IMG/VR virus record: IMGVR_UViG_3300021141_000706
Strand: one strand, 5' to 3'
Length of the DNA: 64,000 nt
Source: a virus
The position numbers and the translations under genes were made by a program. The notes under the pieces were generated by a model. It did not search any database and was not told where the DNA came from. It worked only from the letters and a program-made list of their open reading frames with translations. Within the stretch, counting starts at the first letter, position 1; each line of letters opens with the position of its first letter. Below, piece by piece: positions 7,495 through 61,688 of this stretch.

Positions 7495-8421
7495 ATGATG
7501 AAGAATATCGGATATTGTTGTATTCCAATGGGATGTAACGAAGGTAAACCTAAAAAAGAACATATAACAGTTAATAGAGGTATGGTTCGTAGAACTTTTG
7601 ATGCTAAAGGCTTGCCTTATGCTTCCGAGTTAATTATTGAGAATCTAAAAGATACTCTCAAAGTTCTAGACTATAATCTTAAAAATCATATCTATATCTA
7701 TCGTTTGAGTTCAGACTCATTTCCATGGATGTCTGAATATGAATTCTCTGACTTACCAAATTTCAAATTGATTCAAATTCTTATGGCTCAAATTGGTGAG
7801 AAGATTAAATCAAATAAAATTCGTGTGAGCTATCACCCAGGTCCTTTCAACGTTTTGGCAAGTGAGAATCCATCAGTTGTTGAGAAAACAATTAAAGAGT
7901 TAAATAAACACGCTGAATTAATGGATTTAATGAACTTAGACAAGACTACGTTCTATCCGATAAACATTCATATCAATACAACTAAACCTACCAGAGAAGA
8001 AGCCGCAGTGCGTTTCTGTGAGCAGTTTGAGAACCTAAGTGAATCTTGTAAGTTAAGATTAGTTGTTGAGAATGATGATGGTCAAAATCAATACTCTGTA
8101 AAGATGTTACACGACTGGGTTCATACTAAGATTGGTATTCCAATTACTTTTGACCAACATCACTTTAACTATGGTCCACAAGACCAATCAATGGAAGAAG
8201 CATTGAGATTAGCTCACTCTACTTGGAAAACAAGAGCCTTAACTCATATGAGTTCACCAAAAACATTAGAAGATACATCAGGAAAACAAACAGCACATGC
8301 CGATTATATTTATGAAGAAATTAAAACATTTGGTCTTGACTTTGATACAGAAATCGAAGCGAAAGCAAAAGACCTCGCAGTTATTAGATATAGAAATCAG
8401 TTTAAAGTTCTCAAAGGGTGA
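7495..8421 (+). CDS. uvsE: UV-damage endonuclease
   Basis: IGYCC, YRLSSDSFP, HPGPFNVLAS, ENDD, FDQHH, HADYI, EAKAKDLA. Confidence 0.93.
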   Translation: MMKNIGYCCIPMGCNEGKPKKEHITVNRGMVRRTFDAKGLPYASELIIENLKDTLKVLDYNLKNHIYIYRLSSDSFPWMSEYEFSDLPNFKLIQILMAQIGEKIKSNKIRVSYHPGPFNVLASENPSVVEKTIKELNKHAELMDLMNLDKTTFYPINIHINTTKPTREEAAVRFCEQFENLSESCKLRLVVENDDGQNQYSVKMLHDWVHTKIGIPITFDQHHFNYGPQDQSMEEALRLAHSTWKTRALTHMSSPKTLEDTSGKQTAHADYIYEEIKTFGLDFDTEIEAKAKDLAVIRYRNQFKVLKG

Positions 8422-8653
8422 TCGTGTTGTTATTGTGACACGAGCTTATGAGGATCTTAAATATCGAGTAGGTTCGGTGGTTGCTGCTAAAGATACACTG
8501 GAATTTAACTCATATAGAGTTGAACTAGATTTATATCCAAGTGGATATCAATTAAAACAACATTTAATACCTATTATTTTTGCTGAAGAAGAACTTCAGT
8601 TTGAAGATACATCTAAAGAAAGAGATTGGAAGTTAAAACAAGTTCTAAAATGA
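8297..8653 (+). CDS. small SH3/KOW-like protein with C-terminal tag (true start probably later)
   Basis: KFSKGDRVVIV...ERDWKLKQVLK; the long overlap with uvsE makes the 8297 start doubtful. Confidence 0.6.
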   Translation: MPIIFMKKLKHLVLTLIQKSKRKQKTSQLLDIEISLKFSKGDRVVIVTRAYEDLKYRVGSVVAAKDTLEFNSYRVELDLYPSGYQLKQHLIPIIFAEEELQFEDTSKERDWKLKQVLK

Positions 8654-8964
8654 TAAAAAAAATACTTTCTATATTCAAAAATAAAGAAGAAGAAATTTAT
8701 GGTTTTGTTAAATATAACAGAGGTGATGAAGTCAAAGTAACTATTTACTCTGAGGTGCCAGAATTTTGGTATATTGGTAAAGTATTAGATATTAATGCTC
8801 GTTATGTTCTGCCAGATATTAAACAAAGTTGGAAAGTAGAATATTATGTTTCATTTAAGAATAGTAAAGGAAGTGAACTAAGATACTGGTTCTTAGAATC
8901 AGAATTAAGAAAGTACTCTTTACAAGAAGAAAGAAATTCAAGAATAGACCAATTGTTAAATTAA
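8650..8964 (+). CDS. SH3-like protein with C-terminal tag
   Basis: KYNRGDEVKV...WFLESEL...ERNSRIDQLLN; ATGA overlap at 8650. Confidence 0.7.
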   Translation: MIKKILSIFKNKEEEIYGFVKYNRGDEVKVTIYSEVPEFWYIGKVLDINARYVLPDIKQSWKVEYYVSFKNSKGSELRYWFLESELRKYSLQEERNSRIDQLLN

Positions 8965-8982
8965 AACTTAATATATAAGTCT

Positions 8983-9345
8983 ATGAAGAAAATGAGTGAA
9001 TTAATCAAAGAAAGTGTAGGTTATGTAGGAGTTGGTTGTCAAAGCCTTAATTCTGAGTTAATATACTTGACAGAAGGTGGTAATCAGGTTGGGAGTCTTG
9101 TACTTATTTATAACGAAAATACAGCTTCTATTTTTTCAGTAGAAGTTCTAAATAAACATAGAGGAAAAGGATATGGTAAGAAATTAGTAGTTGAGGCTAT
9201 TAGTAGAGCTAAGTCTAAAGGTTCATATGTTTTAGAGTTAAATACAGAAACAGATAATACTGTTGCTAATAATCTTTATCAATCTTTAGGATTTGAATTA
9301 AGAGGATTAAAAGATGATTTTAATAATTACATAAAAACATTATAA
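8983..9345 (+). CDS. GNAT acetyltransferase with N-terminal tag
   Basis: HRGKGYGKKL, NTVANNLYQSLGF; MKKMSELIKES; TAATATATA upstream. Confidence 0.88.
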   Translation: MKKMSELIKESVGYVGVGCQSLNSELIYLTEGGNQVGSLVLIYNENTASIFSVEVLNKHRGKGYGKKLVVEAISRAKSKGSYVLELNTETDNTVANNLYQSLGFELRGLKDDFNNYIKTL

Positions 9346-9348
9346 AAG

Positions 9349-9376
9349 AAAAGAGAGTCAAATGACTCTCTTTTTT
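9349..9376. terminator. bidirectional intrinsic terminator
   Basis: GAGAGTC-aaat-GACTCTC flanked by A and T tracts. Confidence 0.85.
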
Positions 9377-10254: not shown

Positions 10255-10755
10255 TTACTTTAATATTTCTTCTAATTTATTATCTCTTTCTTCGTACTTC
10301 TCTGTTATATCAGCATATCTTAATCTATATGATGTGCTTAGATTTACTAGATCTACATATTTTATAATTGAAAAGAGCACAAATGTTTTCCATCTTCTCT
10401 TTTCAAAAAAATCATTAACTAAATCTTCGGATTCAAATTCTTTTGTTTCAGCATTATATTGTTTTGAAACTATTTTATTATCAACTACTTTCATTATATG
10501 AAATGATGGCATCGAAGTAACATAAGAAATTTTAGTCCAATGTTTATCTAAAAATTGACCTAACCATAATGATGGATCAACTGTAGCCATTCTAACATTA
10601 CTATTATCACTACCCATTCTAAAGCAGTTATCAATTAGTATTTTAATACCTTCAAGATTATTCTCACCAATAGGATAAACTGATATACTTTTTGGATCCG
10701 TATTCGTTAGTTGAGTCGGTCCATTTAAATTTTTTATAAAGTCTTTGAATATCAT
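10255..10755 (-). CDS. hypothetical protein with C-terminal tag
   Basis: Ends ERDNKLEEILK. Confidence 0.7.
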   Translation of the reverse strand: MIFKDFIKNLNGPTQLTNTDPKSISVYPIGENNLEGIKILIDNCFRMGSDNSNVRMATVDPSLWLGQFLDKHWTKISYVTSMPSFHIMKVVDNKIVSKQYNAETKEFESEDLVNDFFEKRRWKTFVLFSIIKYVDLVNLSTSYRLRYADITEKYEERDNKLEEILK

Positions 10756-10757: not shown

Positions 10758-11450
10758 TTATTTTATGTAATAATATAGTTTAAGTTTATCTCCCCAGGAG
10801 ACATCAACGACAAATTCTTCTTTTAATATCTTACAAGATTTATTTTCGTGTGATGTAATAAAGTGACAGCCTTTTGACAGCCTATTAAATATATCAGACC
10901 TCATATCATAATCAAAACAAACATCATTCATAAAAACAATAGAACCCATTGATAAATCAAAATCTTTTACATCTTTTTCAATGAAAAAAATTGATTTATG
11001 TTCTGGTAAAACTTCTTCTTTAATAGACTTAGCATATCTAAGTCTTTGTGGAACTATTTCAATACCAACAAATGTTTTTATATCAGACTTAATAGCAGTA
11101 TGTATAATTAATTTACCACAACCACAACCAATATCTACGAAAACATCTTTATCAGATACTTTTTTATATTTATTGATTTTATTTATGATTTCATCAACAC
11201 CATTTCTAAGAATCTCACCATATGTAAAATTATTATTATAATTTCCTTTATATGTGAAGTGTTTATTGATATTTGTATCTCTTTTAGTAAAATTTTCTAA
11301 TTTGAATTTGTCTTCAGATGAATAGTTATCCCAAACACCTAAAGACACACAAATAGATTTAATACTAAATAAGTTATGCTTATAAAGTTGATCTAATTTA
11401 GAATTGTCTAATAATAATTTAAGTTCCTTGTCCATATTTAACAATCTCAA
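10758..11450 (-). CDS. class I SAM methyltransferase, DOT1-like
   Basis: TYGEI, FVDIGCGCGK, GIEIV, FMNDVCF, VSW. Confidence 0.75.
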   Translation of the reverse strand: MRLLNMDKELKLLLDNSKLDQLYKHNLFSIKSICVSLGVWDNYSSEDKFKLENFTKRDTNINKHFTYKGNYNNNFTYGEILRNGVDEIINKINKYKKVSDKDVFVDIGCGCGKLIIHTAIKSDIKTFVGIEIVPQRLRYAKSIKEEVLPEHKSIFFIEKDVKDFDLSMGSIVFMNDVCFDYDMRSDIFNRLSKGCHFITSHENKSCKILKEEFVVDVSWGDKLKLYYYIK

Positions 11451-11841
11451 TTTTAGCCTCTCTTAAAAAATCTAAGCCAGAGGTGTCTTTATAGTCTTCA
11501 ATGTAGACTAATCGTTTTATTCCAGATTGTAGTATAAGTTTAGAACAATCTCTACAAGGAGAATGTGTTTGATATAAAGTACTACCCTCACAAGAATGAC
11601 CATGTTTAGCACACTTTAGAATAGCATTAGCTTCACCGTGAATAACATACCAATTAGTATCACCATCACCATTCTCACAAGAGTTATCAAAGCCTGTTGG
11701 TGTTCCATTATAACCATCAGATATAATCATTCCGTTCTTAACTATTAGGGCACCTACTTGTTTTCTACTACAATGTGAAAGTTTAGCCCACTCTGTAGCC
11801 ATATTCAAATAAGTTCTATCGTATCTTTCTTCCTTAGTCAT
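11419..11841 (-). CDS. dCMP deaminase
   Basis: HGEANAI, SPCRDC, GYNGTP. Confidence 0.93.
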   Translation of the reverse strand: MTKEERYDRTYLNMATEWAKLSHCSRKQVGALIVKNGMIISDGYNGTPTGFDNSCENGDGDTNWYVIHGEANAILKCAKHGHSCEGSTLYQTHSPCRDCSKLILQSGIKRLVYIEDYKDTSGLDFLREAKIEIVKYGQGT

Positions 11842-11983
11842 TTTTAAATAGTTTATTTATTTTATATTTTCTAACCTCGTTTCTTTCCAGACCTAACATT
11901 TTAATTATCCAATCTATTGAAAAGTATGGAGTATTATATGATTTAATCATATCAGACATTATTTTCATTCTATCCTTATTCAT
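11834..11983 (-). CDS. 49-aa mini-protein: portal (gp20)-like fragment plus C-terminal tag (not in ORF track)
   Basis: Hand translation MNKDRMKIMSDMIKSYNTPYFSIDWIIKMLGLERNEVRKYKINKLFKND; ATGnnTAA overlaps with both neighbours. Confidence 0.7.
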   Translation of the reverse strand: MNKDRMKIMSDMIKSYNTPYFSIDWIIKMLGLERNEVRKYKINKLFKND

Positions 11984-12128
11984 TGAATAATTTATTAATT
12001 TTTTTCTTTCTTATAAGTTTTCTAACACTATCTTTATATACCTTATTAAAGGCTTCTTTTGGATATATTCTACCATTGTGTTTATCATAGGCTTTTTGTA
12101 TAACACCTTCTAGAATATACTTACTCAT
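11976..12128 (-). CDS. 50-aa mini-protein: prohead protease (gp21)-like N-terminal fragment plus C-terminal tag
   Basis: MSKYILEGVIQKAYDKHNGRIYPKEAF...IRKKKINKLFNE; start reassigned to 12128 (ATGAGTAA overlap). Confidence 0.75.
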   Translation of the reverse strand: MSKYILEGVIQKAYDKHNGRIYPKEAFNKVYKDSVRKLIRKKKINKLFNE

Positions 12129-12294
12129 CTGGAAATAACTTTTTAATTTTTTCTTTTCTACTACCTCTTTTAAAATCATTTATAACATCAGCAACAGCAG
12201 GTGAAACAACCATATAATTAGCACTACCTTTAGTAGATGCTTTATGAATCATTTCAGATGCCTTTAATAATTTATTAATTAGTTCTTTACTCAT
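12121..12294 (-). CDS. 57-aa mini-protein: major capsid (gp23)-like fragment plus C-terminal tag (not in ORF track)
   Basis: Hand translation MSKELINKLLKASEMIHKASTKGSANYMVVSPAVADVINDFKRGSRKEKIKKLFPDE. Confidence 0.75.
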   Translation of the reverse strand: MSKELINKLLKASEMIHKASTKGSANYMVVSPAVADVINDFKRGSRKEKIKKLFPDE

Positions 12295-15067: not shown

Positions 15068-15490
15068 CTATTTAAGAATCTCTTTTATTTTTCTATCTCT
15101 TTCTAAAATTTTGAATTTAATTTCTAAATATTCTTCTATCTCTGAAGGTAAGTTAAGGTTATTCTTTTTTAACTCATCGTAAAAAGGTTTACCTAAAACA
15201 TTTAATGTTGAAATAGCAACAGCAAGATGTGGATCACCATAACCATCAACTTCAATATCTTCATCTAAAACATGATAAGTTGTTTTATTAATTGAGTAGT
15301 TCATAGTGCTACCGCCCCAAGTAAGATATTGACCAGATGATAATGTAGATGTTGTGATTGAAGAATTTGTACCAGATATGTTGATAACTCCAGAATTACC
15401 TACTGAGCTTGATATAGAAGGTGTTCCAAATACTGGAGCACCTATTGCGCTTGTGTGAACTGTTTGTCCGGCTATGTTTACGAATCCCAT
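15068..15490 (-). CDS. hypothetical protein, S/T/G-rich N-terminus, C-terminal tag
   Basis: Ends ERDRKIKEILK; TAG stop. Confidence 0.7.
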   Translation of the reverse strand: MGFVNIAGQTVHTSAIGAPVFGTPSISSSVGNSGVINISGTNSSITTSTLSSGQYLTWGGSTMNYSINKTTYHVLDEDIEVDGYGDPHLAVAISTLNVLGKPFYDELKKNNLNLPSEIEEYLEIKFKILERDRKIKEILK

Positions 15491-15519: not shown

Positions 15520-16065
15520 TTAGATAATCTTACTAATTTGAATATGGCGATAAAGACTTTGAAACTCTTCTCTTATTTCTTCTTTGTATTCATATGAATA
15601 ATTATTTGAAAAATAATCATATTCTTTTCTCTCTACTTTCTTACTAATTGATTCATAATTGGCTTTAACTTTATCAAAGCAGTTTTCTTTATCAGTCCAC
15701 TTAACCATATTGTTAATTAAGTCAAAGTCAATCTTTTTGAATCCGTCAAAAAACTCAACTTGAGCATGTGAGTATAGATAGTGTCTAATAACTTTATCAT
15801 AATAATCTTCTTCTAAAACTCCTTTAGGATTTGATAACTCTGTTGTTGTAAAGTAAAACTCAACACCTATGTTTATTAAATGTTTAACTAATTTTACTAT
15901 TGCGTTTGAAACTCTATTGTCTAAAAAAACATAAACTATATCATCCTCAACAAAACAAACCGGTATATGTTCATATTTTTTGAACATAACAAATTTACCT
16001 TTAACAACCCAAGTAGGATTGACTAAAGGTCTAAATTTATCTGGTATTAAGTTATTTAAGTCCAT
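15520..16065 (-). CDS. hypothetical protein with degenerate C-terminal tag
   Basis: Ends YRHIQISKII. Confidence 0.7.
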   Translation of the reverse strand: MDLNNLIPDKFRPLVNPTWVVKGKFVMFKKYEHIPVCFVEDDIVYVFLDNRVSNAIVKLVKHLINIGVEFYFTTTELSNPKGVLEEDYYDKVIRHYLYSHAQVEFFDGFKKIDFDLINNMVKWTDKENCFDKVKANYESISKKVERKEYDYFSNNYSYEYKEEIREEFQSLYRHIQISKII

Positions 16066-22140: not shown

Positions 22141-22494
22141 ATGAATCAAAGATCAATTAATCTTTCACCCTGGAAAGAAATTTCTATATCAACTGAAGTA
22201 CAACATCATACTTTAATTGATATAGCAACCATTATCATAAGTGATGATGAAGACTATTATATAATTGAGGATGATATTGAAAAAGTAATGGATGTTAGTC
22301 AAATGCCTCATTATATAAAAGAAGATTGGATTAACTACAATAAGAAAGAACTTAACCAAAAAGTTATAGATAAACACATCGCAGTTTATACCGATAAGTC
22401 TGAAATGATATATCCACCTGACAGAGAAGTTGAAGAAATAATTTCTACACTAAAATCAATAAAAAGACATTTAATTATTAAAAAGATAATTTAA
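22141..22494 (+). CDS. hypothetical protein with degenerate C-terminal tag
   Basis: Ends KRHLIIKKII. Confidence 0.65.
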   Translation: MNQRSINLSPWKEISISTEVQHHTLIDIATIIISDDEDYYIIEDDIEKVMDVSQMPHYIKEDWINYNKKELNQKVIDKHIAVYTDKSEMIYPPDREVEEIISTLKSIKRHLIIKKII

Positions 22495-28828: not shown

Positions 28829-29293
28829 ATGGTGTCTTTGAATAAAGAATATAATCAAATTGTGAACCTTACTAAATTCAATGTGAATTTTAGTAAGTTT
28901 ATTCATAATAATGACTTATTGAGTCATAGTCCAGACTATATTCTTGAAAAATATAATCATTGGATTGGATTTGAACCAACTATTGAGTGTAAATTATATA
29001 CACCAGATGATATGACTGATTTTTTTCTTAAATATTGGAAAAGATGGGGTATATTTGAAGAATATTCTGTGAAAAATATTTTGATGTATCTTTACTCAAC
29101 TAGAAGTATGAATCTAGTATTAATGTCTGAGAAGTTTGAAGAGTATATCGGGCCAATGAATATGATATCAGATATACCAGATAAAAAAGGATTACATCAT
29201 AAATCAGATTTATTTATTAATGATGTATTAGAAAAGAATAAAGACAATGTAAAAGTTGTTTTAAGAGATATGAAAATTGGAAGTATAATATAA
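28829..29293 (+). CDS. hypothetical protein with C-terminal tag
   Basis: TATATTTG at 28817-24; ends LRDMKIGSII. Confidence 0.7.
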   Translation: MVSLNKEYNQIVNLTKFNVNFSKFIHNNDLLSHSPDYILEKYNHWIGFEPTIECKLYTPDDMTDFFLKYWKRWGIFEEYSVKNILMYLYSTRSMNLVLMSEKFEEYIGPMNMISDIPDKKGLHHKSDLFINDVLEKNKDNVKVVLRDMKIGSII

Positions 29294-30249: not shown

Positions 30250-30698
30250 TAAACGATAAAGTGATAATGATTGTAGAAAATCTGATACAATCAACTAAAA
30301 ACGCAGAGTTAGAATGGATTGATAAAGGTTCTGTTGATAAAAGAAGTTATCATCGTGAGTATTATGCTATTGCTGAAGATGGTACAAAATACGAGGCAGA
30401 AGTTAAGTACACATTAAGTAATAGTGGTACTTGGGTATTAGAATCTGCTCCTTCTATCTGGGTTAGAAGTGAGAAACTTCCAAATGGTGTTTTCTATATC
30501 TATGGTGGTCAATCCGAATTGAAAGAAATTATTTCCGAATTTAGAAAAGTAATTATGGATAAGTATTGTCAAGATATGAAGCCATCTGAAAAAGTGGTTG
30601 AAGATGCTTTAGATGGTATTGCTAAAGGTATTAGTATATCAACTTATCGTGATAATAAACTAAATAAGATTCTTGGTGTCTTTGGATTAGGTAAATAA
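30246..30698 (+). CDS. hypothetical protein with C-terminal tag
   Basis: YRDNKLNKILG near the C-terminus. Confidence 0.7.
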   Translation: MINDKVIMIVENLIQSTKNAELEWIDKGSVDKRSYHREYYAIAEDGTKYEAEVKYTLSNSGTWVLESAPSIWVRSEKLPNGVFYIYGGQSELKEIISEFRKVIMDKYCQDMKPSEKVVEDALDGIAKGISISTYRDNKLNKILGVFGLGK

Positions 30699-31544: not shown

Positions 31545-31797
31545 AAATATGGGTAAGATAATTTCTATGAAGAGAGGTGACTTTCCCATAGATAGTTTTG
31601 TTATTATGCCTGGTGTTACCCATTATAAAAACATATACACAAATGGAAATTATTTATTCTTTAGTCAAGAAGACTATAAACAATCCATAACTATTGAATT
31701 TACTAATGAAGGTGAGTTAGATAGATTTTTTACTATGTTAATGAGAGAGATAAAATTAAATCAGCTAATAAATGTTGAGACGAAAAATACTAAATAG
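31525..31797 (+). CDS. hypothetical protein with C-terminal tag
   Basis: MREIKLNQLIN near the C-terminus; exact start uncertain. Confidence 0.6.
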   Translation: MMLRITKNMGKIISMKRGDFPIDSFVIMPGVTHYKNIYTNGNYLFFSQEDYKQSITIEFTNEGELDRFFTMLMREIKLNQLINVETKNTK

Positions 31798-32002
31798 AAT
31801 AGGTGTTGTGTTTGGTATATTAGCATTCTTAATGATGTTTGTTATACCATTCTTTATCAAGTCTAATGATAAAATGTATGCTGGTATTTACTTTTGTTTC
31901 TTTCTAACTTGTACTTGTGTGGCTAATGTAACATTAGAAAAATCAAATAAACCACCATCTCTTGAAGAAAGAGAAGAAAAAATTAGACAAATTATTAAGT
32001 GA
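31772..32002 (+). CDS. two-helix membrane protein with C-terminal tag
   Basis: Two hydrophobic segments; ends EREEKIRQIIK. Confidence 0.65.
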   Translation: MLRRKILNRIGVVFGILAFLMMFVIPFFIKSNDKMYAGIYFCFFLTCTCVANVTLEKSNKPPSLEEREEKIRQIIK

Positions 32003-32277
32003 AAGTTTATTGTAAAAGAACTTGCTTTGAAAAGAATACAAATGCTTTTCCAGTAAATGGAAAAGAGTATGGTCAAGACTATGTTAAATGGGCTTGGGGT
32101 AAGATATATGAATGTCACGAACCAAAAGATTATGAAAAATCGGCTACTTATTTAATAATAGAGTCTGAAGTAAAAGAATCTTGGTATCCAATAAGTGAGA
32201 AGAATTTTAACAAACATTTTGAAACTTTAGAAGAAAATCGTAATAAGAAAATAGAAAAAATTTTAAAAAATGATTAA
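31999..32277 (+). CDS. hypothetical protein with C-terminal tag
   Basis: Ends NRNKKIEKILKND; GTGA overlap. Confidence 0.65.
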   Translation: MKVYCKRTCFEKNTNAFPVNGKEYGQDYVKWAWGKIYECHEPKDYEKSATYLIIESEVKESWYPISEKNFNKHFETLEENRNKKIEKILKND

Positions 32278-32779: not shown

Positions 32780-33519
32780 AATATTTATCAGATACAGAAA
32801 TCCTTAACTGGAACAGAAGATTAGAAAGAAGTGATTACGCAGTTTATCCACTTTCCAATGTTAGATCAGGTCATCCTGACATCATCTTTAGACAAAAAAT
32901 CAATAATGGTTATAGTCCTATGGGTGAACAACTTGTTGAAACAATTGATCCATTTATTCGATATGACTTTACATTCTCAGTAGCTTCTAACAGGAAAGAA
33001 ACATTTCATGACTTATTTGAAAAACTATCAAAAGATCCATTTGGTACTAAATCTATTTATAGAGATCAGAAAAGTGAGAAGATAATGGATATTACTTTTA
33101 ATGATACTGTTATTGAAAGTAAAGAAGTAAATACACACTTAGTTTTTGAAAAAGAGTATATTAGATTTACCATACATTTTGCTGGTAAGTTAGGATCTAT
33201 AATGGCTTATGTTTCTTATTTAGAAGATACTATTAATTTCTTCTCTGAGATTTGGGGTTATAATGAAGATGGTTCAGAAGTTTGTTTATTAAAATATCCA
33301 ATTGGTACAATTGTTTCTTTACCTAAAGATAAGTCTACTGATTATTTAGTTTTAGAATATAAGTATAGAAAATTAGATGATAAGTATTTTATCGATTTTA
33401 TTGCTAGTGAAATGTTAAATAATAAAGGTTCGGTTATAACTTATGGTGAGATTTATACATTTAGAGAATCAGAATTATGTTACAGTCGTAATTCAAGAAT
33501 TGATGATATTTTAAATTAA
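32776..33519 (+). CDS. hypothetical protein with C-terminal SH3-like module and tag
   Basis: LKYPIGTIV...FRESEL..SRNSRIDDILN. Confidence 0.7.
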   Translation: MKYLSDTEILNWNRRLERSDYAVYPLSNVRSGHPDIIFRQKINNGYSPMGEQLVETIDPFIRYDFTFSVASNRKETFHDLFEKLSKDPFGTKSIYRDQKSEKIMDITFNDTVIESKEVNTHLVFEKEYIRFTIHFAGKLGSIMAYVSYLEDTINFFSEIWGYNEDGSEVCLLKYPIGTIVSLPKDKSTDYLVLEYKYRKLDDKYFIDFIASEMLNNKGSVITYGEIYTFRESELCYSRNSRIDDILN

Positions 33520-36221: not shown

Positions 36222-36508
36222 TAGTTCAAACTAAATTTCTTTGTAAAACAGGTAGCAGAACCGCACCGAGAGGTCCACTTGATGGTATTAAATGGCAAGA
36301 TAGATTCATTGAAGATAAGTGGTATGATGGTGAGTATGAAACTTGGTCTTGGGAAGATGGCTATAGAATAAATAGTGGATGGAGAAGATATTGGGTTATA
36401 AATGAACAAGGTGAGAAAGAAGAAATATCAAAACCAATGTTCAGATTACTTTTTGAAACTGATACACAACAATTAAGAGATAGAAAAATAGAAGACTTAA
36501 TAAAATAA
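36218..36508 (+). CDS. hypothetical protein with C-terminal tag
   Basis: Ends LRDRKIEDLIK. Confidence 0.7.
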   Translation: MIVQTKFLCKTGSRTAPRGPLDGIKWQDRFIEDKWYDGEYETWSWEDGYRINSGWRRYWVINEQGEKEEISKPMFRLLFETDTQQLRDRKIEDLIK

Positions 36509-36514: not shown

Positions 36515-36916
36515 ATGTACGATAACGAATCAACCAAAGAGAACCAAATTCATGTTTCAAATGAGTTTGTTGATATATTCTCAAACTTCAACGTTGTAAC
36601 ACAAGTTGAAAAAATGAAACAACTTACTAAGCGTGAGTTGTATTTACTTCTAACCGTTTGCTTAGATAAATTCTCTGATGAAGATCCTGTTGTTAAACAC
36701 AACTTACTTCCTTTCAAAGAAGAAATTATGAATATCTTTGATGTTCAAGATGATAAAGATGCTATTGACTCAGTGCTGATTGATTTAATCACTGAATCTG
36801 GTGATAAATACATTGAAACTGATAACATCGTTTATAATGACGACCAAAAGTTACCAGAGCCTTTAACCAAAGACCAAGTTCGTGATGCTAAAATTAATAT
36901 CATCAACGAGAACTAA
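36515..36916 (+). CDS. acidic hypothetical protein with C-terminal tag
   Basis: Ends VRDAKINIINEN. Confidence 0.7.
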   Translation: MYDNESTKENQIHVSNEFVDIFSNFNVVTQVEKMKQLTKRELYLLLTVCLDKFSDEDPVVKHNLLPFKEEIMNIFDVQDDKDAIDSVLIDLITESGDKYIETDNIVYNDDQKLPEPLTKDQVRDAKINIINEN

Positions 36917-36959: not shown

Positions 36960-38759
36960 ATGGAAGAAACATTAAATACTGAACAAGAAGTGAAACAACC
37001 TGTAATTGGTGAGTTCAAACCTAAGCGCAAGTTCTTAAACTTTGTATCGGCTGTAAACGGAGCAAGAATTCGTTTCATCCGTGATATCGCATTTGTAAAA
37101 GGCGAGAAACTATCTGGCACCTTAGAAGGTGTCGTTTTCAAAATCACAATCTGTGATGAAGGTACAATTAACTTTGAAGAAGTTGATACTACTGTAACTG
37201 ATGCGGCTCAACGTAAACGTCTTATTGATGATATTGATTCAACTGATGTTACAGGTTACGCTCAGAAATTTGTAGTTGCTGGTATTCAGTTTGCTGATGT
37301 TAATGGTGACCTTTGCTATCTTGAAGTAGAACAAATGAAACCAATTGATAAATTGAAATCTATCTTTGACGATGAAGAAACTCCTTCTTTGTCTAATAAA
37401 GGTATGAGTTTTCTTGATGATTTACTAAGTGGTTCTAATGAAGTTGAAACATTAGAATTGTCTGAAAAAGATGCTGAGATTTTTGTTGAAGCTATTGAAA
37501 ATCCACCATCACCAAATGAAAAATTAATCAAAGCTTCTGAGTCTTATTTGGAACAACAATTCCGTAAGATGAATGAAGATAAAATTAATGAGTTAAAAAA
37601 CCGCATTGAGGATGCTGAGAAAGAGTCTGCTCGTTTAAGAAGAGAGATCTCTATGAATGAAACTAAGTTGAAGAAACAAACAGAAGATTTAGGTGTATTA
37701 GAAACTCGTTTAGATAGTTTCAATGCTAATGATGAATCTACGGGTTATGTATTCTTCGTTTCGGAAGAACAAAAGCCAGAAGAAATTGGATTAACAGAAG
37801 ATAACAGAGCAATGGCTGATAAGATTGCGGATATCGTTGGTCTTAAAAAAGATGTTCTTTTCAAAATGTTAACAGAAGGTCACTACAAAATTCGTATTGC
37901 TGAGAAATCAGATATGACTGCTGAGAAAGTAAAAGTTACTAATGATATCTTAGAAAAGATGAAGGCTTTGGTTAATGGTGATAGTTCACTTGAAGCTAAA
38001 GTAACTATGACTGAACCAGGTCAGTTTGAGTATCGTGGTAGTATGACTTGGCATCAAATTGTTGGTAAGATGATTCGTAAAGGATTTGAACAAGAGCCAG
38101 AGTTTGATAAGATTTGTCAATCTAACTCTTACGATTCTAAAGAAGAGGTTAAAGATGAAATGTCTGATATGAAATCAGACATTCAAAAAATGGCTGATGG
38201 TTTAGGTCTTGGTAAAGTTGATTTTGGTAAAGACGGAATTTCAGTAGAAGGTGAGACAAAAACACCTTCAATTGAGATTAAATCAAAAACTGTAAGAACA
38301 TACAAAGAAGAAACTACATTAGTAGTTGTAGGTACAATCGACCACGAGGATAACCGTGATGTTGAAATCACTGACGACTATACCGGATTTGAAGTTTATG
38401 TTGGTAATAAAAAGATGAAGGGTGGTTATGAGTCCGATGGATTTATTTCAATTATGACTTTAACAGAGTTTGCTAAATGGCAAAAACAATACCCAGATGC
38501 TATGACTGATGGTGGTGGTATAGGTTCATTCTTATTACCTAACTTCAAAGGAACTATTGGAGTAACTGCTATGTATGATGTAGGTGAATTCACAAATGAA
38601 TTTGATTTGGATGATTACATTCTACACCAAGATGGAATGGAAGATGCTTATGTGTCCTTGACTCTACCAGAAGGAACTCAAATTATGAAGATGGATGATT
38701 ATCATCAAGTTCCAGTTGCCGCAATGAGAGATATTAAAATCAATAAAATAATTAAGTAA
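36960..38759 (+). CDS. large multidomain protein with DUF1778 (TacA antitoxin)-like segment, coiled coil and C-terminal tag
   Basis: LELSEKDAEIFVEAIENPPSPNEKLIKA; ends MRDIKINKIIK; TATATTTG at 36934-41. Confidence 0.75.
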   Translation: MEETLNTEQEVKQPVIGEFKPKRKFLNFVSAVNGARIRFIRDIAFVKGEKLSGTLEGVVFKITICDEGTINFEEVDTTVTDAAQRKRLIDDIDSTDVTGYAQKFVVAGIQFADVNGDLCYLEVEQMKPIDKLKSIFDDEETPSLSNKGMSFLDDLLSGSNEVETLELSEKDAEIFVEAIENPPSPNEKLIKASESYLEQQFRKMNEDKINELKNRIEDAEKESARLRREISMNETKLKKQTEDLGVLETRLDSFNANDESTGYVFFVSEEQKPEEIGLTEDNRAMADKIADIVGLKKDVLFKMLTEGHYKIRIAEKSDMTAEKVKVTNDILEKMKALVNGDSSLEAKVTMTEPGQFEYRGSMTWHQIVGKMIRKGFEQEPEFDKICQSNSYDSKEEVKDEMSDMKSDIQKMADGLGLGKVDFGKDGISVEGETKTPSIEIKSKTVRTYKEETTLVVVGTIDHEDNRDVEITDDYTGFEVYVGNKKMKGGYESDGFISIMTLTEFAKWQKQYPDAMTDGGGIGSFLLPNFKGTIGVTAMYDVGEFTNEFDLDDYILHQDGMEDAYVSLTLPEGTQIMKMDDYHQVPVAAMRDIKINKIIK

Positions 38760-40903: not shown

Positions 40904-41170
40904 ATGACTGAATGTGATATTTGGATAAAAGTATTTGATAAATTGGGATTTAAGTTTATAGAAGAATATTCCTCTCAAAGTAAGATAAACTTTTTAGTTT
41001 ATCGCAATGATGATGGTGACTATAACTTATACTTTAATAGAGAAACCGATGAAGTTTTATCTTTATTTATCAGAAATAGTAAAACTGAAAATCAAACTAC
41101 TAAACAGTTATTTATAGAAGAAAATAAAAATCTATTCAGGGATGTAAAACTTGAATTAATGAATATATAA
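40904..41170 (+). CDS. hypothetical protein with C-terminal tag
   Basis: Start reassigned to MTECD after TATATTTG (40892-99); ends FRDVKLELMNI. Confidence 0.65.
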   Translation: MTECDIWIKVFDKLGFKFIEEYSSQSKINFLVYRNDDGDYNLYFNRETDEVLSLFIRNSKTENQTTKQLFIEENKNLFRDVKLELMNI

Positions 41171-41738: not shown

Positions 41739-42202
41739 TATACAGATTAGATTTCGGCAATCTTTATGAGTGGAATAATTGTAATTCTGCTAACTCTAAG
41801 TTACTTGAAATGGTTCATAACTTAGTGCTAGATTCTTTATTACTATATCGTTACAAGGTTAAGAAATCTATTGTTAATAGGTATGGTGTTAGTGATCCTG
41901 AAAAGATTAACTTTGATTTGATTAAACATAAATCAATTATTGTTTATCATTTAGATATCTACAAAGAAAAGCCTACTTTAATAAATGATTTAATTAAATT
42001 CTGCTTAAAAACAGATAGAGATTTGTTTATACCTACCCAAAGAGAAAGATACTGGGGTAAAGATGATGTTTATAGAAAAAAACACGAGTATAGATTTGAT
42101 ATAGCACTTGAGTTAGACACTTATGATTATCAATACTATGATATGAATAAAGATAGCTCTTTAGTACAATTAAAAAGAGAGCTAATAATTAGCTCTCTTT
42201 AA
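41735..42202 (+). CDS. hypothetical protein with degenerate C-terminal tag
   Basis: Ends KRELIISSL. Confidence 0.6.
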   Translation: MIYRLDFGNLYEWNNCNSANSKLLEMVHNLVLDSLLLYRYKVKKSIVNRYGVSDPEKINFDLIKHKSIIVYHLDIYKEKPTLINDLIKFCLKTDRDLFIPTQRERYWGKDDVYRKKHEYRFDIALELDTYDYQYYDMNKDSSLVQLKRELIISSL

Positions 42203-55525: not shown

Positions 55526-55533
55526 CAAATATT

Positions 55534-55878: not shown

Positions 55879-55960
55879 TAAAGTAGCCCTTGGGCCTCGT
55901 TAAGCCTCTTACCCTAGTGGTAACGTAACGAGTGGGAGTAGGGTAACACCGACGCCTCCC
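55871..55960 (+). ncRNA. unidentified structured GC-rich element (possible pseudoknot)
   Basis: CTCGTTA/TAACGAG crossing TTACCCTA/TAGGGTAA; GGGAG/CTCCC. Confidence 0.35.
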
Positions 55961-55966
55961 AAATTT

Positions 55967-56040
55967 GGTCCTGTAGCTCAGTTGGTTAGAGCAACTGACT
56001 CATAATCAGTAGGTCCACGGTTCGAGCCCGTGCGGGACCA
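55967..56040 (+). tRNA. tRNA with CAT anticodon, probably Ile2 (reads AUA after lysidine modification); CCA not encoded
   Basis: GGTCCTG/CGGGACC with C4-G69 and C5-G68; ACTGA-CTCATAA-TCAGT; no initiator features. Confidence 0.9.
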
Positions 56041-56057
56041 CTAAAAAAGAAAAGAAT

Positions 56058-56310: not shown

Positions 56311-57450
56311 ATGGCTGAAATGACACAAAAATCCACAATGCCTCAATCAGTGATTGAGAATCTTTCAAAGTTAACCGAGAAAGAGCGTAAATACTTTGCC
56401 GTGATGTGGGCAAAATATGGTGTATTGAATATTACATCTAAACCAGGCGTTGCGAAGTCTGCTATTGGTAAATCAATTGCCGATAAAATGAACTTCCGAT
56501 ATATGGATATTCGTTTGTCAATGGTTGACGAAACTGACGTGGGTTTGTATCCATCTATCAACGAAATTGAAGTTGATGGTAAGATGGTTAAGTGTTTGGA
56601 CTTCGTTGTTCCTCGTTGGGCAGTTGAAGCTAACAAGCAACCAACGATTATCCACTTTGAAGAGTTGAACCGTGCTTCTCAGCAAGTTCGTAATGCCGCT
56701 CTTCAAATCCTACTTGAGCGTCAGATTGGTACTGACTTCAAATTCAACGATAGCGTACTTATGATGTCTTCTGGTAACTTAGGTGACGAAGACGGAACAG
56801 ACGTTGAAGAGTTTGACTCTGCCTTGAACAACCGTTTGGTTCACATCAACCATACATTGTCAGTTGACGAGTGGATTAAAGACTTCGCGATGGATAACTG
56901 TCACAAGTTAATCACCTCTTTCATCAAAGCTCACCCAGAGCAAATGTACAAAGGTGCCACTGAGAACACAAAGGCTTACGCTACTCCACGTTCTTGGACT
57001 ATGATGTCTAAGTTCATCACCGAAAACTTCGGTCAAGATGCTTCACCTCGTGAGTTCTTGCCTTTGTTGAAAGAGGTGGCAAGTGGTTACTTAGGTAACT
57101 CTGCTGTGAAGTTCGTTCAATACTGCGAAGATATGTTGAATATTTCTATCAACGATGTAATCAACAACTACGACGGTATCAAGAAAGACCTTGAGAAGTA
57201 CAACCGTGATAAGAACTCTGAATTGATTCAATCATTGAAAGAGATCGATATCACCAAGTTGAATAAGAAACAACTTGACAACGTTGTAAAGTTCTTGAAC
57301 AACGTGGGTGATGATGAGAAAACCGCTTACTTGCTTTACATCTTAGATAACATCGCCGATGTAACGAACCCAACCTTGAAGACTTTCTTGCTTCAGTTCG
57401 AAGACCTTCTTCGTACTATCAAGAAAATCAACAAGCCTGGTAGTAAGTAA
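56311..57450 (+). CDS. MoxR-like AAA+ ATPase
   Basis: SKPGVAKS (variant Walker A), IIHFEELNRA, SGN, ALNNRL, ATPRSW. Confidence 0.88.
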   Translation: MAEMTQKSTMPQSVIENLSKLTEKERKYFAVMWAKYGVLNITSKPGVAKSAIGKSIADKMNFRYMDIRLSMVDETDVGLYPSINEIEVDGKMVKCLDFVVPRWAVEANKQPTIIHFEELNRASQQVRNAALQILLERQIGTDFKFNDSVLMMSSGNLGDEDGTDVEEFDSALNNRLVHINHTLSVDEWIKDFAMDNCHKLITSFIKAHPEQMYKGATENTKAYATPRSWTMMSKFITENFGQDASPREFLPLLKEVASGYLGNSAVKFVQYCEDMLNISINDVINNYDGIKKDLEKYNRDKNSELIQSLKEIDITKLNKKQLDNVVKFLNNVGDDEKTAYLLYILDNIADVTNPTLKTFLLQFEDLLRTIKKINKPGSK

Positions 57451-57471
57451 TCAGAACCAGCCAATCTGATT

Positions 57472-57507
57472 AAAAAGGGGATGTCAGTATTGATATCCCC
57501 TTTTTTT
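57472..57507 (+). terminator. intrinsic terminator
   Basis: GGGGATGTCA-gtat-TGATATCCCC-T7. Confidence 0.85.
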
Positions 57508-57542
57508 CTAAACAAATTATTCATAAATAGATATAATCTACA

Positions 57543-57809
57543 ATGGAAACATATCAAGTACAACTGGTTCTAATAAATAAATTCGGTGAGTTCAAAGGAA
57601 AACCAGCGGATATTGACGAAGAAAAATATGACAATTTAATTAAAATGTCTAGAACATTTTATGCCAGTGGTGGATTTGAATTAACATGTGAAGATGATTC
57701 ATATGCTATATTTCCACCAAACATTGTAGAAGAATCTATATTAATAATAAATAAAAAAATCATAACTGATATAACATCAGAAGAAGGAGAAGAAAATGTA
57801 CAAGAGTAA
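57543..57809 (+). CDS. hypothetical protein
   Basis: 88-aa ORF in a co-directional run. Confidence 0.65.
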   Translation: METYQVQLVLINKFGEFKGKPADIDEEKYDNLIKMSRTFYASGGFELTCEDDSYAIFPPNIVEESILIINKKIITDITSEEGEENVQE

Positions 57810-58446
57810 GTTTAAACGTTTTGGAGGTGAATATATTCCAGACATAATAGAATACCTAAAGGACTATCTAAAAGATGATCCTACTGCTACGATTACAGTT
57901 GGTTGCGACTCTATTCAAAAGAGACGTAGAACTGTTTATGCTGTTACGATTATGATGTATAATACAGATTTAAGAAATGGTGCTCACGTTATTTTCTTCC
58001 GTGAATCTTGTGATAAGATTAGAGATAATCAAGAAAGACTTTATAAAGAAGCTCAATATCTTCATGATGTTGGTGTTTATCTTGATGAAGAATTATCTAA
58101 TTTTTATGAAAGAAAAGACTTAACTGAAATAGAAAGAAAAAGATATAAGTTTCACTTAGCCAAGTGTAATCACGAATATTCTCATGTACCACTACATCTT
58201 GAAGAAGGTGTAATGAATGCTATGAACTTAGTACCTGCTGATAGAATGTACTTTAGATTAGTTGATATTCATATTGACTTTAATCCAAATGAAGGAACTA
58301 AGAATGAAAGAGGTGTTAGTAAGAATAAGTCTTATGCTGCCTATAAAGCTTATGTGCCTTGGTTAAGAGGTATGGGATTCAGAACTTGGGCTAAGCCGCT
58401 TGCCTTTGGAGCCACAACAGCGGCAGATCTTTTACTTCAAGACTAA
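57796..58446 (+). CDS. RNase H-like YkuK (DUF458) protein
   Basis: VGCDS, GAHV, RLYKEA, IHIDFN, KP.AFGATTAAD. Confidence 0.82.
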   Translation: MYKSKFKRFGGEYIPDIIEYLKDYLKDDPTATITVGCDSIQKRRRTVYAVTIMMYNTDLRNGAHVIFFRESCDKIRDNQERLYKEAQYLHDVGVYLDEELSNFYERKDLTEIERKRYKFHLAKCNHEYSHVPLHLEEGVMNAMNLVPADRMYFRLVDIHIDFNPNEGTKNERGVSKNKSYAAYKAYVPWLRGMGFRTWAKPLAFGATTAADLLLQD

Positions 58447-58447
58447 T

Positions 58448-58759
58448 ATGTTTCAAATAAATTCAATGCTATTAAGAAAAATGGGGTGGACTGATCACAG
58501 TTCACCTACATTTAATAGTCCTAGATTTGATGATAATGACTTGGTTAGATTTTATATCAGACCAGAAACAATTTATTTTTTTATAAAAGAACTTTCAGAA
58601 GAAGAAAAACAAATATCAAAAAATTCATATAAATTTGTAATTGGTAAAAGAGAAATTCAATTTGATTCTAATATAGAATTAATTAGATTAATAATTGAAA
58701 ATGAAGCTTGTAACGAAGATTATAAAAGGCACTTTAAATTAAATAAAATATTAAGATGA
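58448..58759 (+). CDS. hypothetical protein with C-terminal tag
   Basis: Start reassigned to MFQIN; ends KRHFKLNKILR. Confidence 0.65.
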   Translation: MFQINSMLLRKMGWTDHSSPTFNSPRFDDNDLVRFYIRPETIYFFIKELSEEEKQISKNSYKFVIGKREIQFDSNIELIRLIIENEACNEDYKRHFKLNKILR

Positions 58760-60196: not shown

Positions 60197-60197
60197 G

Positions 60198-60536
60198 ATG
60201 ATTATACTTACTTGTCAGTTAATCTTTGATAAAGGCGGTGAAAGAATACTTACCTCAGTTGTTTATGATGATATTACTGATAGATTTGTTAGAACGGCTC
60301 AAAAAATATCACCTGAATTAGTACAGGATTTAAATTCTAACAACCCTATGGTTGATATTAATGATGTTGTTAGTTTAGATTATATTGATTATGTATTAGA
60401 TGATGAAGAGTTAGAAGAAGTTATTGAAATGGTTGAAGATGGACCTGACAATGATATAATTAAAAAAGCAAAAGAATTTATTGTCTTCTATAAAAGAGAT
60501 AAAAAAATAAAAAATATAATAGATGAAAAAGATTAA
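60198..60536 (+). CDS. hypothetical protein with C-terminal tag
   Basis: Ends KRDKKIKNIIDEKD. Confidence 0.65.
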   Translation: MIILTCQLIFDKGGERILTSVVYDDITDRFVRTAQKISPELVQDLNSNNPMVDINDVVSLDYIDYVLDDEELEEVIEMVEDGPDNDIIKKAKEFIVFYKRDKKIKNIIDEKD

Positions 60537-61113
60537 GTCAGTTTTAATATCAGTTTTTGATAAAGAAGGATTAGAACCATTAGTTAGAATATTAAATGAT
60601 AATGGTGTAAGAATTTACTCAACCGGTGGTACAGAAAAATTTATTAATGACTTAGGGGTTAATGTTATTTCTGTTGAAACAGTTACTGACTATCCATCTA
60701 TCTTAGGTGGTAGAGTTAAAACTTTACATCCAAAAGTATTTGGTGGTATCTTAAATCGTAGAGAAAATGAAAAAGACCAATTAGAAATTTCAGCATTTGG
60801 AATTCCAGAAATTGATATGGTAATTGTTGATCTTTATCCTTTCTCAGAAACAGTTAAGAATGAATCATCAACACATCAAGATATAATTGAGAAGATTGAT
60901 ATTGGTGGTGTTTCTTTAATCAGAGCCGCTGGTAAAAACTATAAAGATGTTCTTATTGTTTCAAATAAGGACCAATATTCTGATGTTTGTGAAATTTTAA
61001 GTACCCAAGAAGTCTCAACGTCATTAGAACAAAGAATGAAGTTTGCTGGTAAGTCATTTGAGTTAACTACTAAATATGATTCTGAAATAGCAGAATATTT
61101 TTATGAAATATAA
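60523..61113 (+). CDS. stand-alone IMP cyclohydrolase (PurH N-terminal domain only)
   Basis: LISVFDKEG, STGGT, GGRVKTLHP, LYPF, IDIGG.SLIRAAGKNY, YD; stops before the transformylase domain. Confidence 0.88.
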   Translation: MKKIKSVLISVFDKEGLEPLVRILNDNGVRIYSTGGTEKFINDLGVNVISVETVTDYPSILGGRVKTLHPKVFGGILNRRENEKDQLEISAFGIPEIDMVIVDLYPFSETVKNESSTHQDIIEKIDIGGVSLIRAAGKNYKDVLIVSNKDQYSDVCEILSTQEVSTSLEQRMKFAGKSFELTTKYDSEIAEYFYEI

Positions 61114-61420
61114 GAAGATAATTAAAGAGTGGAAAGAAGCAACACCACAAGAAGTCTGGGAAGGAGTTAAAGATAACTTTCTTTTTGGATTTATTGGAGC
61201 TACTTTAGTTGTCTTCATTGCCACAAAAACAGACTTAGCTGTTTTGATTGGTTATATGGCTTACTATATGTTTATGGGTAAGATTGTTAATAGACCTAAG
61301 TATGTAACTGATTTAGGTAGAATGATTGTATTCCCTATCCCGTCTGCGTTAGGTGCTTTCACTGGTTATAAACTATCATATTTAATGATAGAACTTTTAA
61401 ATCAATTGATGGGAAGTTAA
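61103..61420 (+). CDS. membrane protein
   Basis: Several hydrophobic helices. Confidence 0.7.
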   Translation: MKYKKIIKEWKEATPQEVWEGVKDNFLFGFIGATLVVFIATKTDLAVLIGYMAYYMFMGKIVNRPKYVTDLGRMIVFPIPSALGAFTGYKLSYLMIELLNQLMGS

Positions 61421-61457
61421 AAACTTTAATAAATAAGATATAAAAATATCTTTATTA

Positions 61458-61688
61458 ATGAAGTATAAACCCGGAGATGTCGTAATAAAAACCACTGGTG
61501 GAAATAAAATGACTGTCTTTGATAAAGTTAATGATAGTTATAAATGTCTTTGGTTTGTTGAAAGTTCAATGAATGAATCTGAGTTCAAAGAAGAAGAGAT
61601 AGTCTCTCTAAATGAATATAAACGATTTCTAAAGACAGAAGAAAGAGAAGATAAGATTAACCAACTTCTTAATTCTTTTACCAATTAA
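61458..61688 (+). CDS. YodC/DUF2158-like small beta-barrel with C-terminal tag
   Basis: YKPGDVV..TGGNKMTV...CLWF...F.EEE; EREDKINQLLN. Confidence 0.75.
   Translation: MKYKPGDVVIKTTGGNKMTVFDKVNDSYKCLWFVESSMNESEFKEEEIVSLNEYKRFLKTEEREDKINQLLNSFTN

Follow-up and report, generated by a model that had tools for sequence, protein, structure and literature searches.

In a 64,000-nt stretch of the IMG/VR virus record IMGVR_UViG_3300021141_000706 (hereafter the window; coordinates are window positions unless a genome is named), many otherwise unrelated proteins share a short peptide motif at their C-termini, which we call the tag. Judged from motif counts, the tag marks about one in ten proteins of the phage, and it is predicted to be an amphipathic α-helix of 12–14 residues. 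We give roughly an even chance to the interpretation that a single common partner reads it as a portable docking label specific to the lineage. In favour of this, the hydrophobic face of the helix has an invariant Arg and a highly conserved Lys at its centre across 107 unrelated bodies, the motif was grafted into a helicase loop, one related lineage carries a whole-genome variant of it and the tagged genes are strongly biased towards one temporal class. Literature searches, which included a comparative jumbo-phage paper, returned no published description of such a tag.

The window has a guanine-cytosine (GC) content of ~30% and originates from a giant uncultured phage with hosts of the Bacteroidota type. 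The phage is T4-like, with homologues of Gp23, Portal_T4 and, by a weak match, Peptidase_S77. Its closest public relatives are the huge phage assemblies LR745206.1 and LR756502.1 (635–642 kb), and a 476-kb IMG/VR contig, G001, is nearer to the window with protein identities of 70–96%. LR745206, G001, LR756504, LR756500 and LR756501 were analysed whole for comparison.

Enrichment of the motif at C-termini

The strict motif was defined as R-[DEN]-x-K-[IL]-x-x-[IL]-[ILF] and was regarded as C-terminal when it lay no more than 16 residues from the C-terminus; the 93 open reading frames (ORFs) of the window, comprising 20,546 amino acids (aa), were searched with residue shuffles as control. The strict motif was found 11 times at C-termini and never internally, compared to a mean of 0.01 and a maximum of 1 C-terminal match in the shuffles, so that the enrichment asserted in the initial annotation holds against both shuffled sequences and internal positions. 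The broader pattern used in that annotation, R-[DENKH]-x-K-[IL]-x-x-[IL]-[ILF], gave 15 C-terminal and no internal matches, a relaxed pattern gave 18 and one, and when looser forms are counted, 22–23 ORFs of the window are tagged, with 0–8 residues between the end of the tag and the stop codon. The core K-[IL]-x-x-[IL]-[ILF] alone was non-specific (15 C-terminal versus 13 internal matches), and therefore the signal depends on the Arg, the Lys and their spacing. All 23 ORFs originally cited as carriers were present and their tails were confirmed, three of them with alternative start codons and unchanged stops (8626, 40832 and 58400 in place of 8650, 40904 and 58448). Five of the cited tags are degenerate (ORFs 15520, 22141, 36515, 40904/40832 and 41735), and the orthologues of these proteins in relatives have better tags.

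A composition artefact was considered as an explanation and rejected, since both the shuffles and AT-rich control phages show that the motif is more frequent than a K/I/N-rich composition would produce. None of the ORFs were tagged in 41-kb samples of two AT-rich T4-like phages, Campylobacter phage CP220 (27% GC) and Salicola phage SCTP-2 (29% GC), and two sister huge phages with 24% and 32% GC had few C-terminal matches (1 and 2, respectively, with the relaxed pattern).

Conservation of the peptide and predicted helix

Codon usage within the tags of the window varies synonymously, with Arg encoded by AGA, CGT, AGG or CGC, Leu by TTA, CTA, CTT or TTG, and Ile by ATT, ATA or ATC, indicating that selection acts on the peptide. 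This bears out the earlier statement that the DNA is not a conserved repeat, and the conservation of the tag in orthologues likewise speaks for selection on the peptide. Among 13 relatives of the 92-aa protein encoded at 31999–32277 (down to 52% identity), R81, K84 and L89 of the tag are invariant, and the 599-aa protein retains its tag in orthologues of 91, 62 and 46% identity. Between LR745206 and G001, the 9-mer of the tag is 58% identical (70% in its core) versus 44% for the bodies. A tag-like tail was kept in 12 of 12 tagged window proteins with a homologue in LR745206, whereas none of 40 untagged pairs had gained one. An origin at the DNA level, be it a repeat, a promoter, a recombination site or the initiation region of the next gene, was rejected on account of the synonymous codon variation, which includes first codon positions, and of the contexts in which the tags occur. 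Some tags are followed by long intergenic gaps or by convergent genes, and the motif was missing from untagged genes that have the same overlapping stop/start junctions; therefore, a promoter, a recombination site or an initiation region does not explain it.

Alignment of the 108 tagged tails of LR745206 showed an invariant R1, D/E/N at position 2 in 85% and K4 in 84% of the sequences, Ile, Leu, Val or Phe at positions 5, 8 and 9 (with a single Tyr at position 9) and a polar residue at position 10. The stop codon follows 0–12, mostly 1–2, residues after the tag. Upstream of the tag, position −1 is hydrophobic and Lys-Ser is frequent at −4/−3, which reads as a helix N-cap (Ser/Thr at −3). On a helical wheel, positions −1, 5, 8 and 9 fall on one face, with R1 and K4 at its centre. 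AlphaFold2 modelled the 92-aa family from 13 sequences as a small barrel followed by a helix at residues 77–90, with a mean predicted local distance difference test score (pLDDT) of 91.9; the helix contains the tag and has a pLDDT of about 86. The combination of basic residues (R1, K4) and acidic residues (position 2 and often 6–7) beside a hydrophobic ridge would also allow the tags to pair with each other through R/K and D/E contacts and an Ile/Leu core, forming a network or condensate without any hub. We regard such pairing as very improbable, since the helix spans only about 1.5 heptads and an Arg occupies a core position.

Distribution among huge phages and non-terminal copies

The numbers of matches in the five completely analysed genomes are given in Table 1; in a 41-kb sample of LR756502, 8 of 58 ORFs were tagged. 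In LR756504, the 51 tagged ORFs carry a variant with K at position 2, R-K-x-[KR]-I-x-x-L-[LYF] (K-type). A search for the DNA pattern encoding R-D-x-K-I-x-x-I-L gave 26 matches in LR745206, 16 in LR756502, none in LR756504 and LR756500 and one in LR756501, and the reversed pattern used as control gave none in any of these five genomes. Scanning IMG/VR with a longer pattern recovered 12 loci, all with 27–32% GC, and the neighbouring ORFs of most of them were tagged as well. These match counts and loci indicate that the tag is confined to one branch of these phages, in which it occurs as D-type and K-type. Within D-type genomes, the K-type is seen too, on a smaller share of the ORFs, among them three mini-genes of the window. 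Two adjacent window genes in a late-type operon, 45956–46837 and 46837–47604 (+), encode proteins of 293 and 255 aa with a tag-like tail, [KR]-x-S-[IV]-N-[QK]-L-Y, that is nearer to the K-type variant of LR756504.

Table 1. Numbers of motif matches by position in the comparison genomes.
Genome	Relaxed, C-terminal	Strict, C-terminal	Relaxed, internal	ORFs
LR745206	108	67	26	975
G001	69	44	28	662
LR756504 (636 kb)	51	4	22	958
LR756500 (462 kb, 24% GC)	1	1	6	708
LR756501 (735 kb)	2	0	16	1052

In the window, the motif is C-terminal, as originally described, but this position is not exclusive in the relatives, where 10–15% of the copies are internal or near the N-terminus (12 strict copies in LR745206 and 9 in G001). 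One internal copy lies in the first RecA-like domain of a DEAD/ResIII helicase. An XPD/DinG-like helicase has the motif at residue 246, conserved in LR745206, G001 and LR756502, as part of a loop insertion of ~13 residues that occurs only in these D-type genomes and is absent from the aligned orthologous helicases of LR756501, LR756504 and LR756500. Of all observations, this restricted insertion points most clearly to a portable unit that was apparently added to finished proteins. Because these two helicases carry the motif, the statement that recognisable enzymes lack the tag applies to the window only.

Unrelated bodies, turnover and fragments of head proteins

After removal of the tails, the tagged proteins of the window had no pairwise BLAST similarity, and the 108 tagged proteins of LR745206 fell into 107 sequence clusters, which agrees with the original view of a constant helix on unrelated bodies. 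Hidden paralogy of the bodies was considered and rejected, as BLAST gave no links. Pfam searches with the ten largest tagged proteins of LR745206 returned no domain, and those with 20 tagged proteins of the window returned only DUF2158 and a weak match to DUF4064. Among the bodies that had been named from the sequence, the YodC-like one was verified by ORF 61458–61688, which passes the gathering score of PF09926 (E=1.9e-6, 28.0 bits, cut-off 22.3) with the tag outside of the domain, and the SH3-like one agrees with the small barrel modelled for ORF 31999–32277 and its weak SH3 matches. The N-terminus of ORF 31772–32002 matches the membrane family DUF4064 weakly, below the Pfam cut-off, and may contain a membrane segment. 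A tail-profile search of a collection of 5.8 billion proteins for tagged known domains returned only the families used to build the profile, and PDB sequence searches with the 599-aa protein, a 379-aa protein and a putative gp55-like ORF gave nothing informative. Tagged proteins of LR745206 have a median length of 105 aa, compared to 144 aa for all ORFs of this genome. Their turnover is high, as only 38 of the 108 have a homologue in G001, and 10 of 22 tagged window ORFs are without a homologue in LR745206.

Three translationally coupled mini-genes of the window (11834, 11976 and 12121, together spanning 11834–12294 on the minus strand) each end in a K-type tag. Their bodies were compared with the T4 head proteins and the homologues of these in five genomes, with 200 shuffles each, and the best matches were a portal segment, the prohead protease and the major capsid protein (MCP), respectively (Table 2). 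The alignments score above the shuffles and thus substantiate the former description of head-protein fragments. When LR745206, G001, LR756504 and the window were pooled, 6 of 211 small tagged ORFs matched head proteins versus 5 of 1187 small ORFs without tag (p=0.003). A K-type tail is present in most of these six, and one of the six aligns only with the repeat region of the protease-scaffold protein. LR745206 and LR756504 likewise contain tagged fragments of capsid and protease that resemble the mini-genes of the window. Another ORF of 53–60 aa, with a tag at its end and a body that is weakly prohead-protease-like, overlaps a 121-aa ORF of gp55-like appearance that has no database support (G001 50240–50747 (+); LR745206 189151–189649 (+)).

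The close succession of body and tag would be expected as well if the helix merely stabilised the protein to which it belongs by packing on each domain, with no common reader involved: in the model, the last strand is followed directly by the helix, whose prediction is confident. Such a cap could be combined with a legacy of gene birth, in which new genes arise when DNA fragments, some of them from head genes of the phage itself, are captured upstream of a 3' end that already codes for the tag; the fast turnover and the bodies that are fragments of the phage's own genes are in line with this part. Altogether we consider this explanation rather unlikely. Packing on 107 differing surfaces would hardly keep one Arg invariant and one Lys nearly so at the centre of the hydrophobic face, the helicase that received the motif in a loop was already stable, and the switch of the whole LR756504 genome to another variant suggests a shared partner. 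With respect to gene birth, the DNA of the tags bears no sign of recent common descent.

Association with early promoters

Two promoter-like motifs were recognised in front of genes, a TAnnTTTG box of the Bacteroidota sigma-A type and the T4-late-like motif TAATATATA near the start codon, and each gene was classified as early or late by the nearest of these motifs upstream on the same strand. In LR745206, 46 C-terminally tagged genes were early and 9 late, compared to 210 and 244 untagged genes (Fisher p=1e-7), and the corresponding numbers in G001 were 36 and 9 versus 134 and 195 (Fisher p=7e-7), corresponding to an odds ratio of ~6 for tagged genes in early operons in both genomes. A second, N-terminal tag, M-K-[YH]-[LI]-K-x-[FY]-N-E, is present on 63 ORFs of LR745206 and resembles the capsid-targeting sequence (CTS) of T4; its early/late distribution is 4/42 in LR745206 and 4/20 in G001. 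The earlier observation that the two tags never co-occur was nearly exact, with one double-tagged ORF among 108 and 63 in LR745206 and none in G001, and both tags follow the promoter class, the C-terminal one being early and the N-terminal one late. In the window, TAATATATA boxes are located 5–10 nt before the starts at 23, 1629(−), 5071, 6284(−), 7456(−), 8983, 27143(−), 28757(−), 45244 and 63481(−). One early operon of the window combines several tagged genes with a gene for a DOT1-like methyltransferase at 10758–11450 (−) (PF08123, E=4e-13).

The timing of expression bears on a possible role of the tag in virion packaging, in which the helix would dock cargo on the inner capsid or scaffold so that small takeover proteins are injected with the DNA. 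The T4-like head gene set is compatible with such a function, as are the tags on head-protein fragments, and huge capsids are known to carry many proteins (PMC10052503). On the other hand, the tagged genes are strongly early, it is the late genes that bear the different, T4-CTS-like tag at the N-terminus, and tags are also located inside helicases; packaging is therefore improbable in our view.

A docking label and its possible reader

As a docking label, the helix would have been joined to over 100 early-class proteins that are otherwise unrelated and for the most part short and quickly evolving and, in a few cases, spliced into surface loops of enzymes; a common reader would recognise it and thereby handle the early accessory proteome as one set. 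The whole-genome variant of the tag in the sister lineage LR756504 suggests that the reader is phage-encoded and co-evolves with the tag. Small ORFans make up most of the gene content of huge phages and offer no starting point for study, and the tag provides a direct experimental entry point; knowledge of its reader could link over 100 uncharacterised proteins to a common fate, and the tagged capsid, protease and portal mimics hint at control or sabotage of head assembly.

Provided that a common reader exists, a ClpC-like unfoldase of the phage acting with ClpP is our leading guess, but a weak one that we would expect to be wrong more often than right. Two ClpP proteins are encoded in LR745206, together with a ClpC-like unfoldase of 701 aa (AAA, middle domain with UVR motif, AAA_2, VGF loop; 423224–425329 (+); in G001 at 284643–286775, locus L169), in which an acidic N-terminal stretch takes the place of a Clp_N domain. 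ClpC-like unfoldase and ClpP occur together in all four tag-bearing genomes, LR756500 is without the unfoldase and LR756501 without ClpP. Each of the two ClpP genes of LR745206 adjoins a tagged ORF, which is downstream of one and upstream of the other. Delivery to this protease might clear the early proteins on time. Alternatively, the variable bodies, including the capsid, protease and portal mimics, might be baits that bring bound proteins to the protease. That binder domains and head-segment mimics serve as baits, with the helix docking the catch onto one phage machine such as the ClpC-like/ClpP protease without N-domain, appears improbable to us. If it were true, the phage would remove chosen proteins of the host or of rival phages, or time head assembly, and then clear its early proteome, which would be the counterpart in bacterial viruses, on a different machine, of the viral hijacking of ubiquitin ligases.

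A DNA-bound platform is another conceivable partner: a tether to the sliding clamp or replisome of the PIP-box or T4 gp45-binding type would hold its clients on DNA. The spacing D2-x-x-I5-x-x-I8-L9 equals that of Q-x-x-h-x-x-a-a, the h-x-x-h-h spacing and the preceding basic residues are as in the tail of T4 gp43, the mostly C-terminal but sometimes N-terminal or internal position, including the one in the XPD-family helicase, would fit, tagged genes lie among replication genes and a gp44-type clamp loader is encoded. Against this, the C-terminal tails of the polymerases differ, contain Phe and do not follow the tag, being MDIFGGFK in LR745206, LSLF or SSLF in LR756504 and LR756500 and different again in LR756501. 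Searches for a gp45-, PCNA- or beta-type clamp with the models PF02916, PF09116 and PF00712, with PHROGs for 10 conserved ORFs of about 200–260 aa, and with hhalign detected none, the probability in hhalign comparisons of 71 families with T4 gp45 being below 2%. FEN/RNase H and topoisomerase are without tag, and more than 100 clients would lack precedent, so that we see only a slim chance for a clamp tether. The family B DNA polymerase of LR745206 seems to be split into two parts ~100 kb apart, at 130568–131992 (−) and 232803–234344 (+); the N-terminal half adjoins the XPD-like helicase, and directly downstream of the C-terminal half lies a 77-aa ORF that ends in a tag followed by an acidic, Phe-containing tail.

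Several observations weigh against a docking label or against its link to Clp. No reader was identified by the clamp searches, the Clp inventory or phyletic profiling, and docking is read from the pattern of occurrence. Phyletic profiling for genes present in LR745206, G001 and LR756504 and absent from LR756500 and LR756501 did not single out the co-occurring hub that the initial annotation had anticipated: among 35 candidates, which include RNase R/II, methyltransferase, kinase-like and nuclease proteins and two large family-less proteins, none stands out. DnaK, the VWA-peptidase and the 379-aa protein (56311–57450), which had been taken for a MoxR ATPase and is here a protein of no assigned function, are also present in tag-negative relatives. 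The helix follows closely behind the body and is confidently predicted, so it may pack on its own domain. In the pooled set, tagged ORFs were not enriched as fragments of larger proteins (17 of 211, 8%, versus 114 of 1187 untagged ORFs, 10%). Concerning Clp, the agreement in phyletic distribution comes from six genomes that are related to each other, the tag is followed by 0–12 residues and does not form the extreme C-terminus, and a capped helix that also occurs inside helicases is unlike classical terminal degrons. Structure prediction of the ClpC-like protein of G001 with the 92-aa tagged family gave scores of 0.02 and 0.00, below the mark of 0.32, in runs without controls, and bears on binding in neither direction. 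The RNase R/II-type exoribonuclease (RNB, cold-shock and S1 domains) is encoded at G001 56656–58536 (−) and LR745206 195382–197286 (−); the tag-bearing genomes have this gene and the two tag-free genomes lack it, and the next downstream gene has the motif near the N-terminus.

Comparison with known systems

The tag fails a defining feature of each known family to which it was compared. The CTS of T4 is an N-terminal sequence of roughly 10 residues on packaged, late-made internal proteins and is cut after h-x-Glu. Like the tag, it is a short peptide common to unrelated proteins of a T4-like phage, to which it gives one fate, but the tag is mostly C-terminal or internal, belongs to the early class and is without an h-x-Glu site, and the phage has its separate CTS-like N-terminal tag on late genes. 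The CTS is mentioned in PMC5694885 and PMC10229621. Clamp-binding peptides of the PIP-box and T4/RB69 type share with the tag the helical conformation, the h-x-x-h-h spacing, the flanking basic residues and the location at termini or in loops, including those of XPD-family helicases; they differ in that the polymerase tail of the phage is without tag and aromatic residues are rare at tag positions 8–9. To our knowledge, the carriers of the tag are about ten times more numerous than the clients of any known clamp.

Adaptor tails and degrons of AAA+ proteases, such as the XB tail of SspB, ssrA and the C-terminus of MuA, are extended peptides at the very end of few proteins per genome. They resemble the tag as short, basic-hydrophobic C-terminal peptides and hand varied proteins to one unfoldase, a cognate type of which, ClpC-like without Clp_N, is encoded with ClpP in all tag-bearing genomes; in contrast, the tag is a predicted capped helix that abuts the body, is sometimes internal and occurs on ~10% of the proteome. 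The cargo-loading peptides of encapsulins, the encapsulation peptides of microcompartments and the C-terminal helices of scaffolding proteins dock unrelated cargo on one shell protein. Encapsulin and microcompartment peptides are, like the tag, terminal amphipathic helices on unrelated proteins, but their cargo is co-expressed with the shell, whereas the tagged genes are dispersed, early and apart from the head module. The F-box is a three-helix domain of 40–50 residues that binds Skp1. The comparison with an F-box-style adaptor library, drawn in the initial annotation, is appropriate in its functional logic of variable bodies with a constant element, and likewise for the PRANC adaptor proteins of poxviruses; it does not extend further, as the tag is a helix of 12–14 residues and not a domain, and no Skp1-like partner is evident. 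No F-box/PRANC-type domain was matched by Pfam in the 20 tagged window proteins scanned.

Tagged ORFs and further features of the window

The positions of the tags in the window are compiled in Table 2.

Table 2. Tags at the C-termini of window ORFs (position of the 9-mer).
Feature	Position	Strand	Remarks
Tag, ORF 8297–8653 (118 aa)	8621..8647	+	Relaxed match, V at position 8; stop 1 residue on
Tag, ORF 8626–8964 (112 aa)	8932..8958	+	Relaxed match, R at position 4
Tag, ORF 10255–10755 (166 aa)	10261..10287	−	Strict match; retained by orthologues in IMG/VR loci
K-type tag, mini-ORF 11834–11983 (49 aa)	11846..11872	−	Body best matches portal, homologue residues about 462–487; score reached by 0/200 shuffles
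K-type tag, mini-ORF 11976–12179 (67 aa)	11985..12011	−	Body best matches prohead protease, T4 gp21 residues 39–72; score reached by 3/200 shuffles
K-type tag, mini-ORF 12121–12294 (57 aa)	12133..12159	−	Body best matches MCP, gp23 homologue residues about 457–496; score reached by 0/200 shuffles
Tag, ORF 15068–15490 (140 aa)	15074..15100	−	Strict match; LR745206 and IMG/VR orthologues tagged
Degenerate tag, ORF 15520–16065 (181 aa)	15523..15549	−	R-H-x-Q-I-x-x-I-I at the very end; R-D-x-Q-I in LR745206 orthologue
Degenerate tag, ORF 22141–22494 (117 aa)	22465..22491	+	Tail of LR745206 orthologue also tag-like
Tag, ORF 28829–29293 (154 aa)	29264..29290	+	Strict match; ORF directly behind host-type TAnnTTTG promoter box
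Tag, ORF 30246–30698 (150 aa)	30648..30674	+	Strict match; stop 7 residues on
Tag, ORF 31525–31797 (90 aa)	31744..31770	+	Strict match; stop 8 residues on
Tag, ORF 31772–32002 (76 aa)	31970..31996	+	Strict match
Tag, ORF 31999–32277 (92 aa)	32239..32265	+	Strict match; predicted SH3-like barrel, then helix
Tag, ORF 32776–33519 (247 aa)	33487..33513	+	Relaxed match; conserved in L001, L002, LR745206 and G001
Tag, ORF 36218–36508 (96 aa)	36476..36502	+	Strict match
Degenerate tag, ORF 36515–36916 (133 aa)	36881..36907	+	Same degenerate tail in relatives
Tag, 599-aa protein (36960–38759)	38727..38753	+	Strict match; gene behind host-type promoter box
Degenerate tag, ORF 40832–41170 (112 aa)	41138..41164	+	–
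Decayed tag, ORF 41735–42202 (155 aa)	42173..42199	+	Good tags in L002 and L003 orthologues
Tag, ORF 58400–58759 (119 aa)	58727..58753	+	H at position 2; core identical in LR745206 orthologue
Tag, ORF 60198–60536 (112 aa)	60495..60521	+	Strict match
Tag, ORF 61458–61688 (76 aa)	61644..61670	+	Strict match; DUF2158/YodC-like body

Besides the tagged ORFs, the window encodes T4-type enzymes of replication and nucleotide metabolism (both topoisomerase II subunits, FEN/RNase H, dCMP deaminase, Rnl1 and DNA methylases) as well as NusG, DnaK, a VWA-metallopeptidase, a TonB-dependent receptor and type IX secretion cargo. Full-length DnaK, the TonB-dependent receptor and the type IX secretion cargo proteins (1762–3648 and 50041–54444), all without tag, are host-like surface and chaperone genes. 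The only three tRNAs that ARAGORN predicted in the window are those for Leu, Arg and Met (55441–56041); none of them corresponds to the sequence at 35960–36035 (+) upstream of ORF 36045, at the end of which GGGTTCAAATCC, resembling a T-arm, precedes a run of T.

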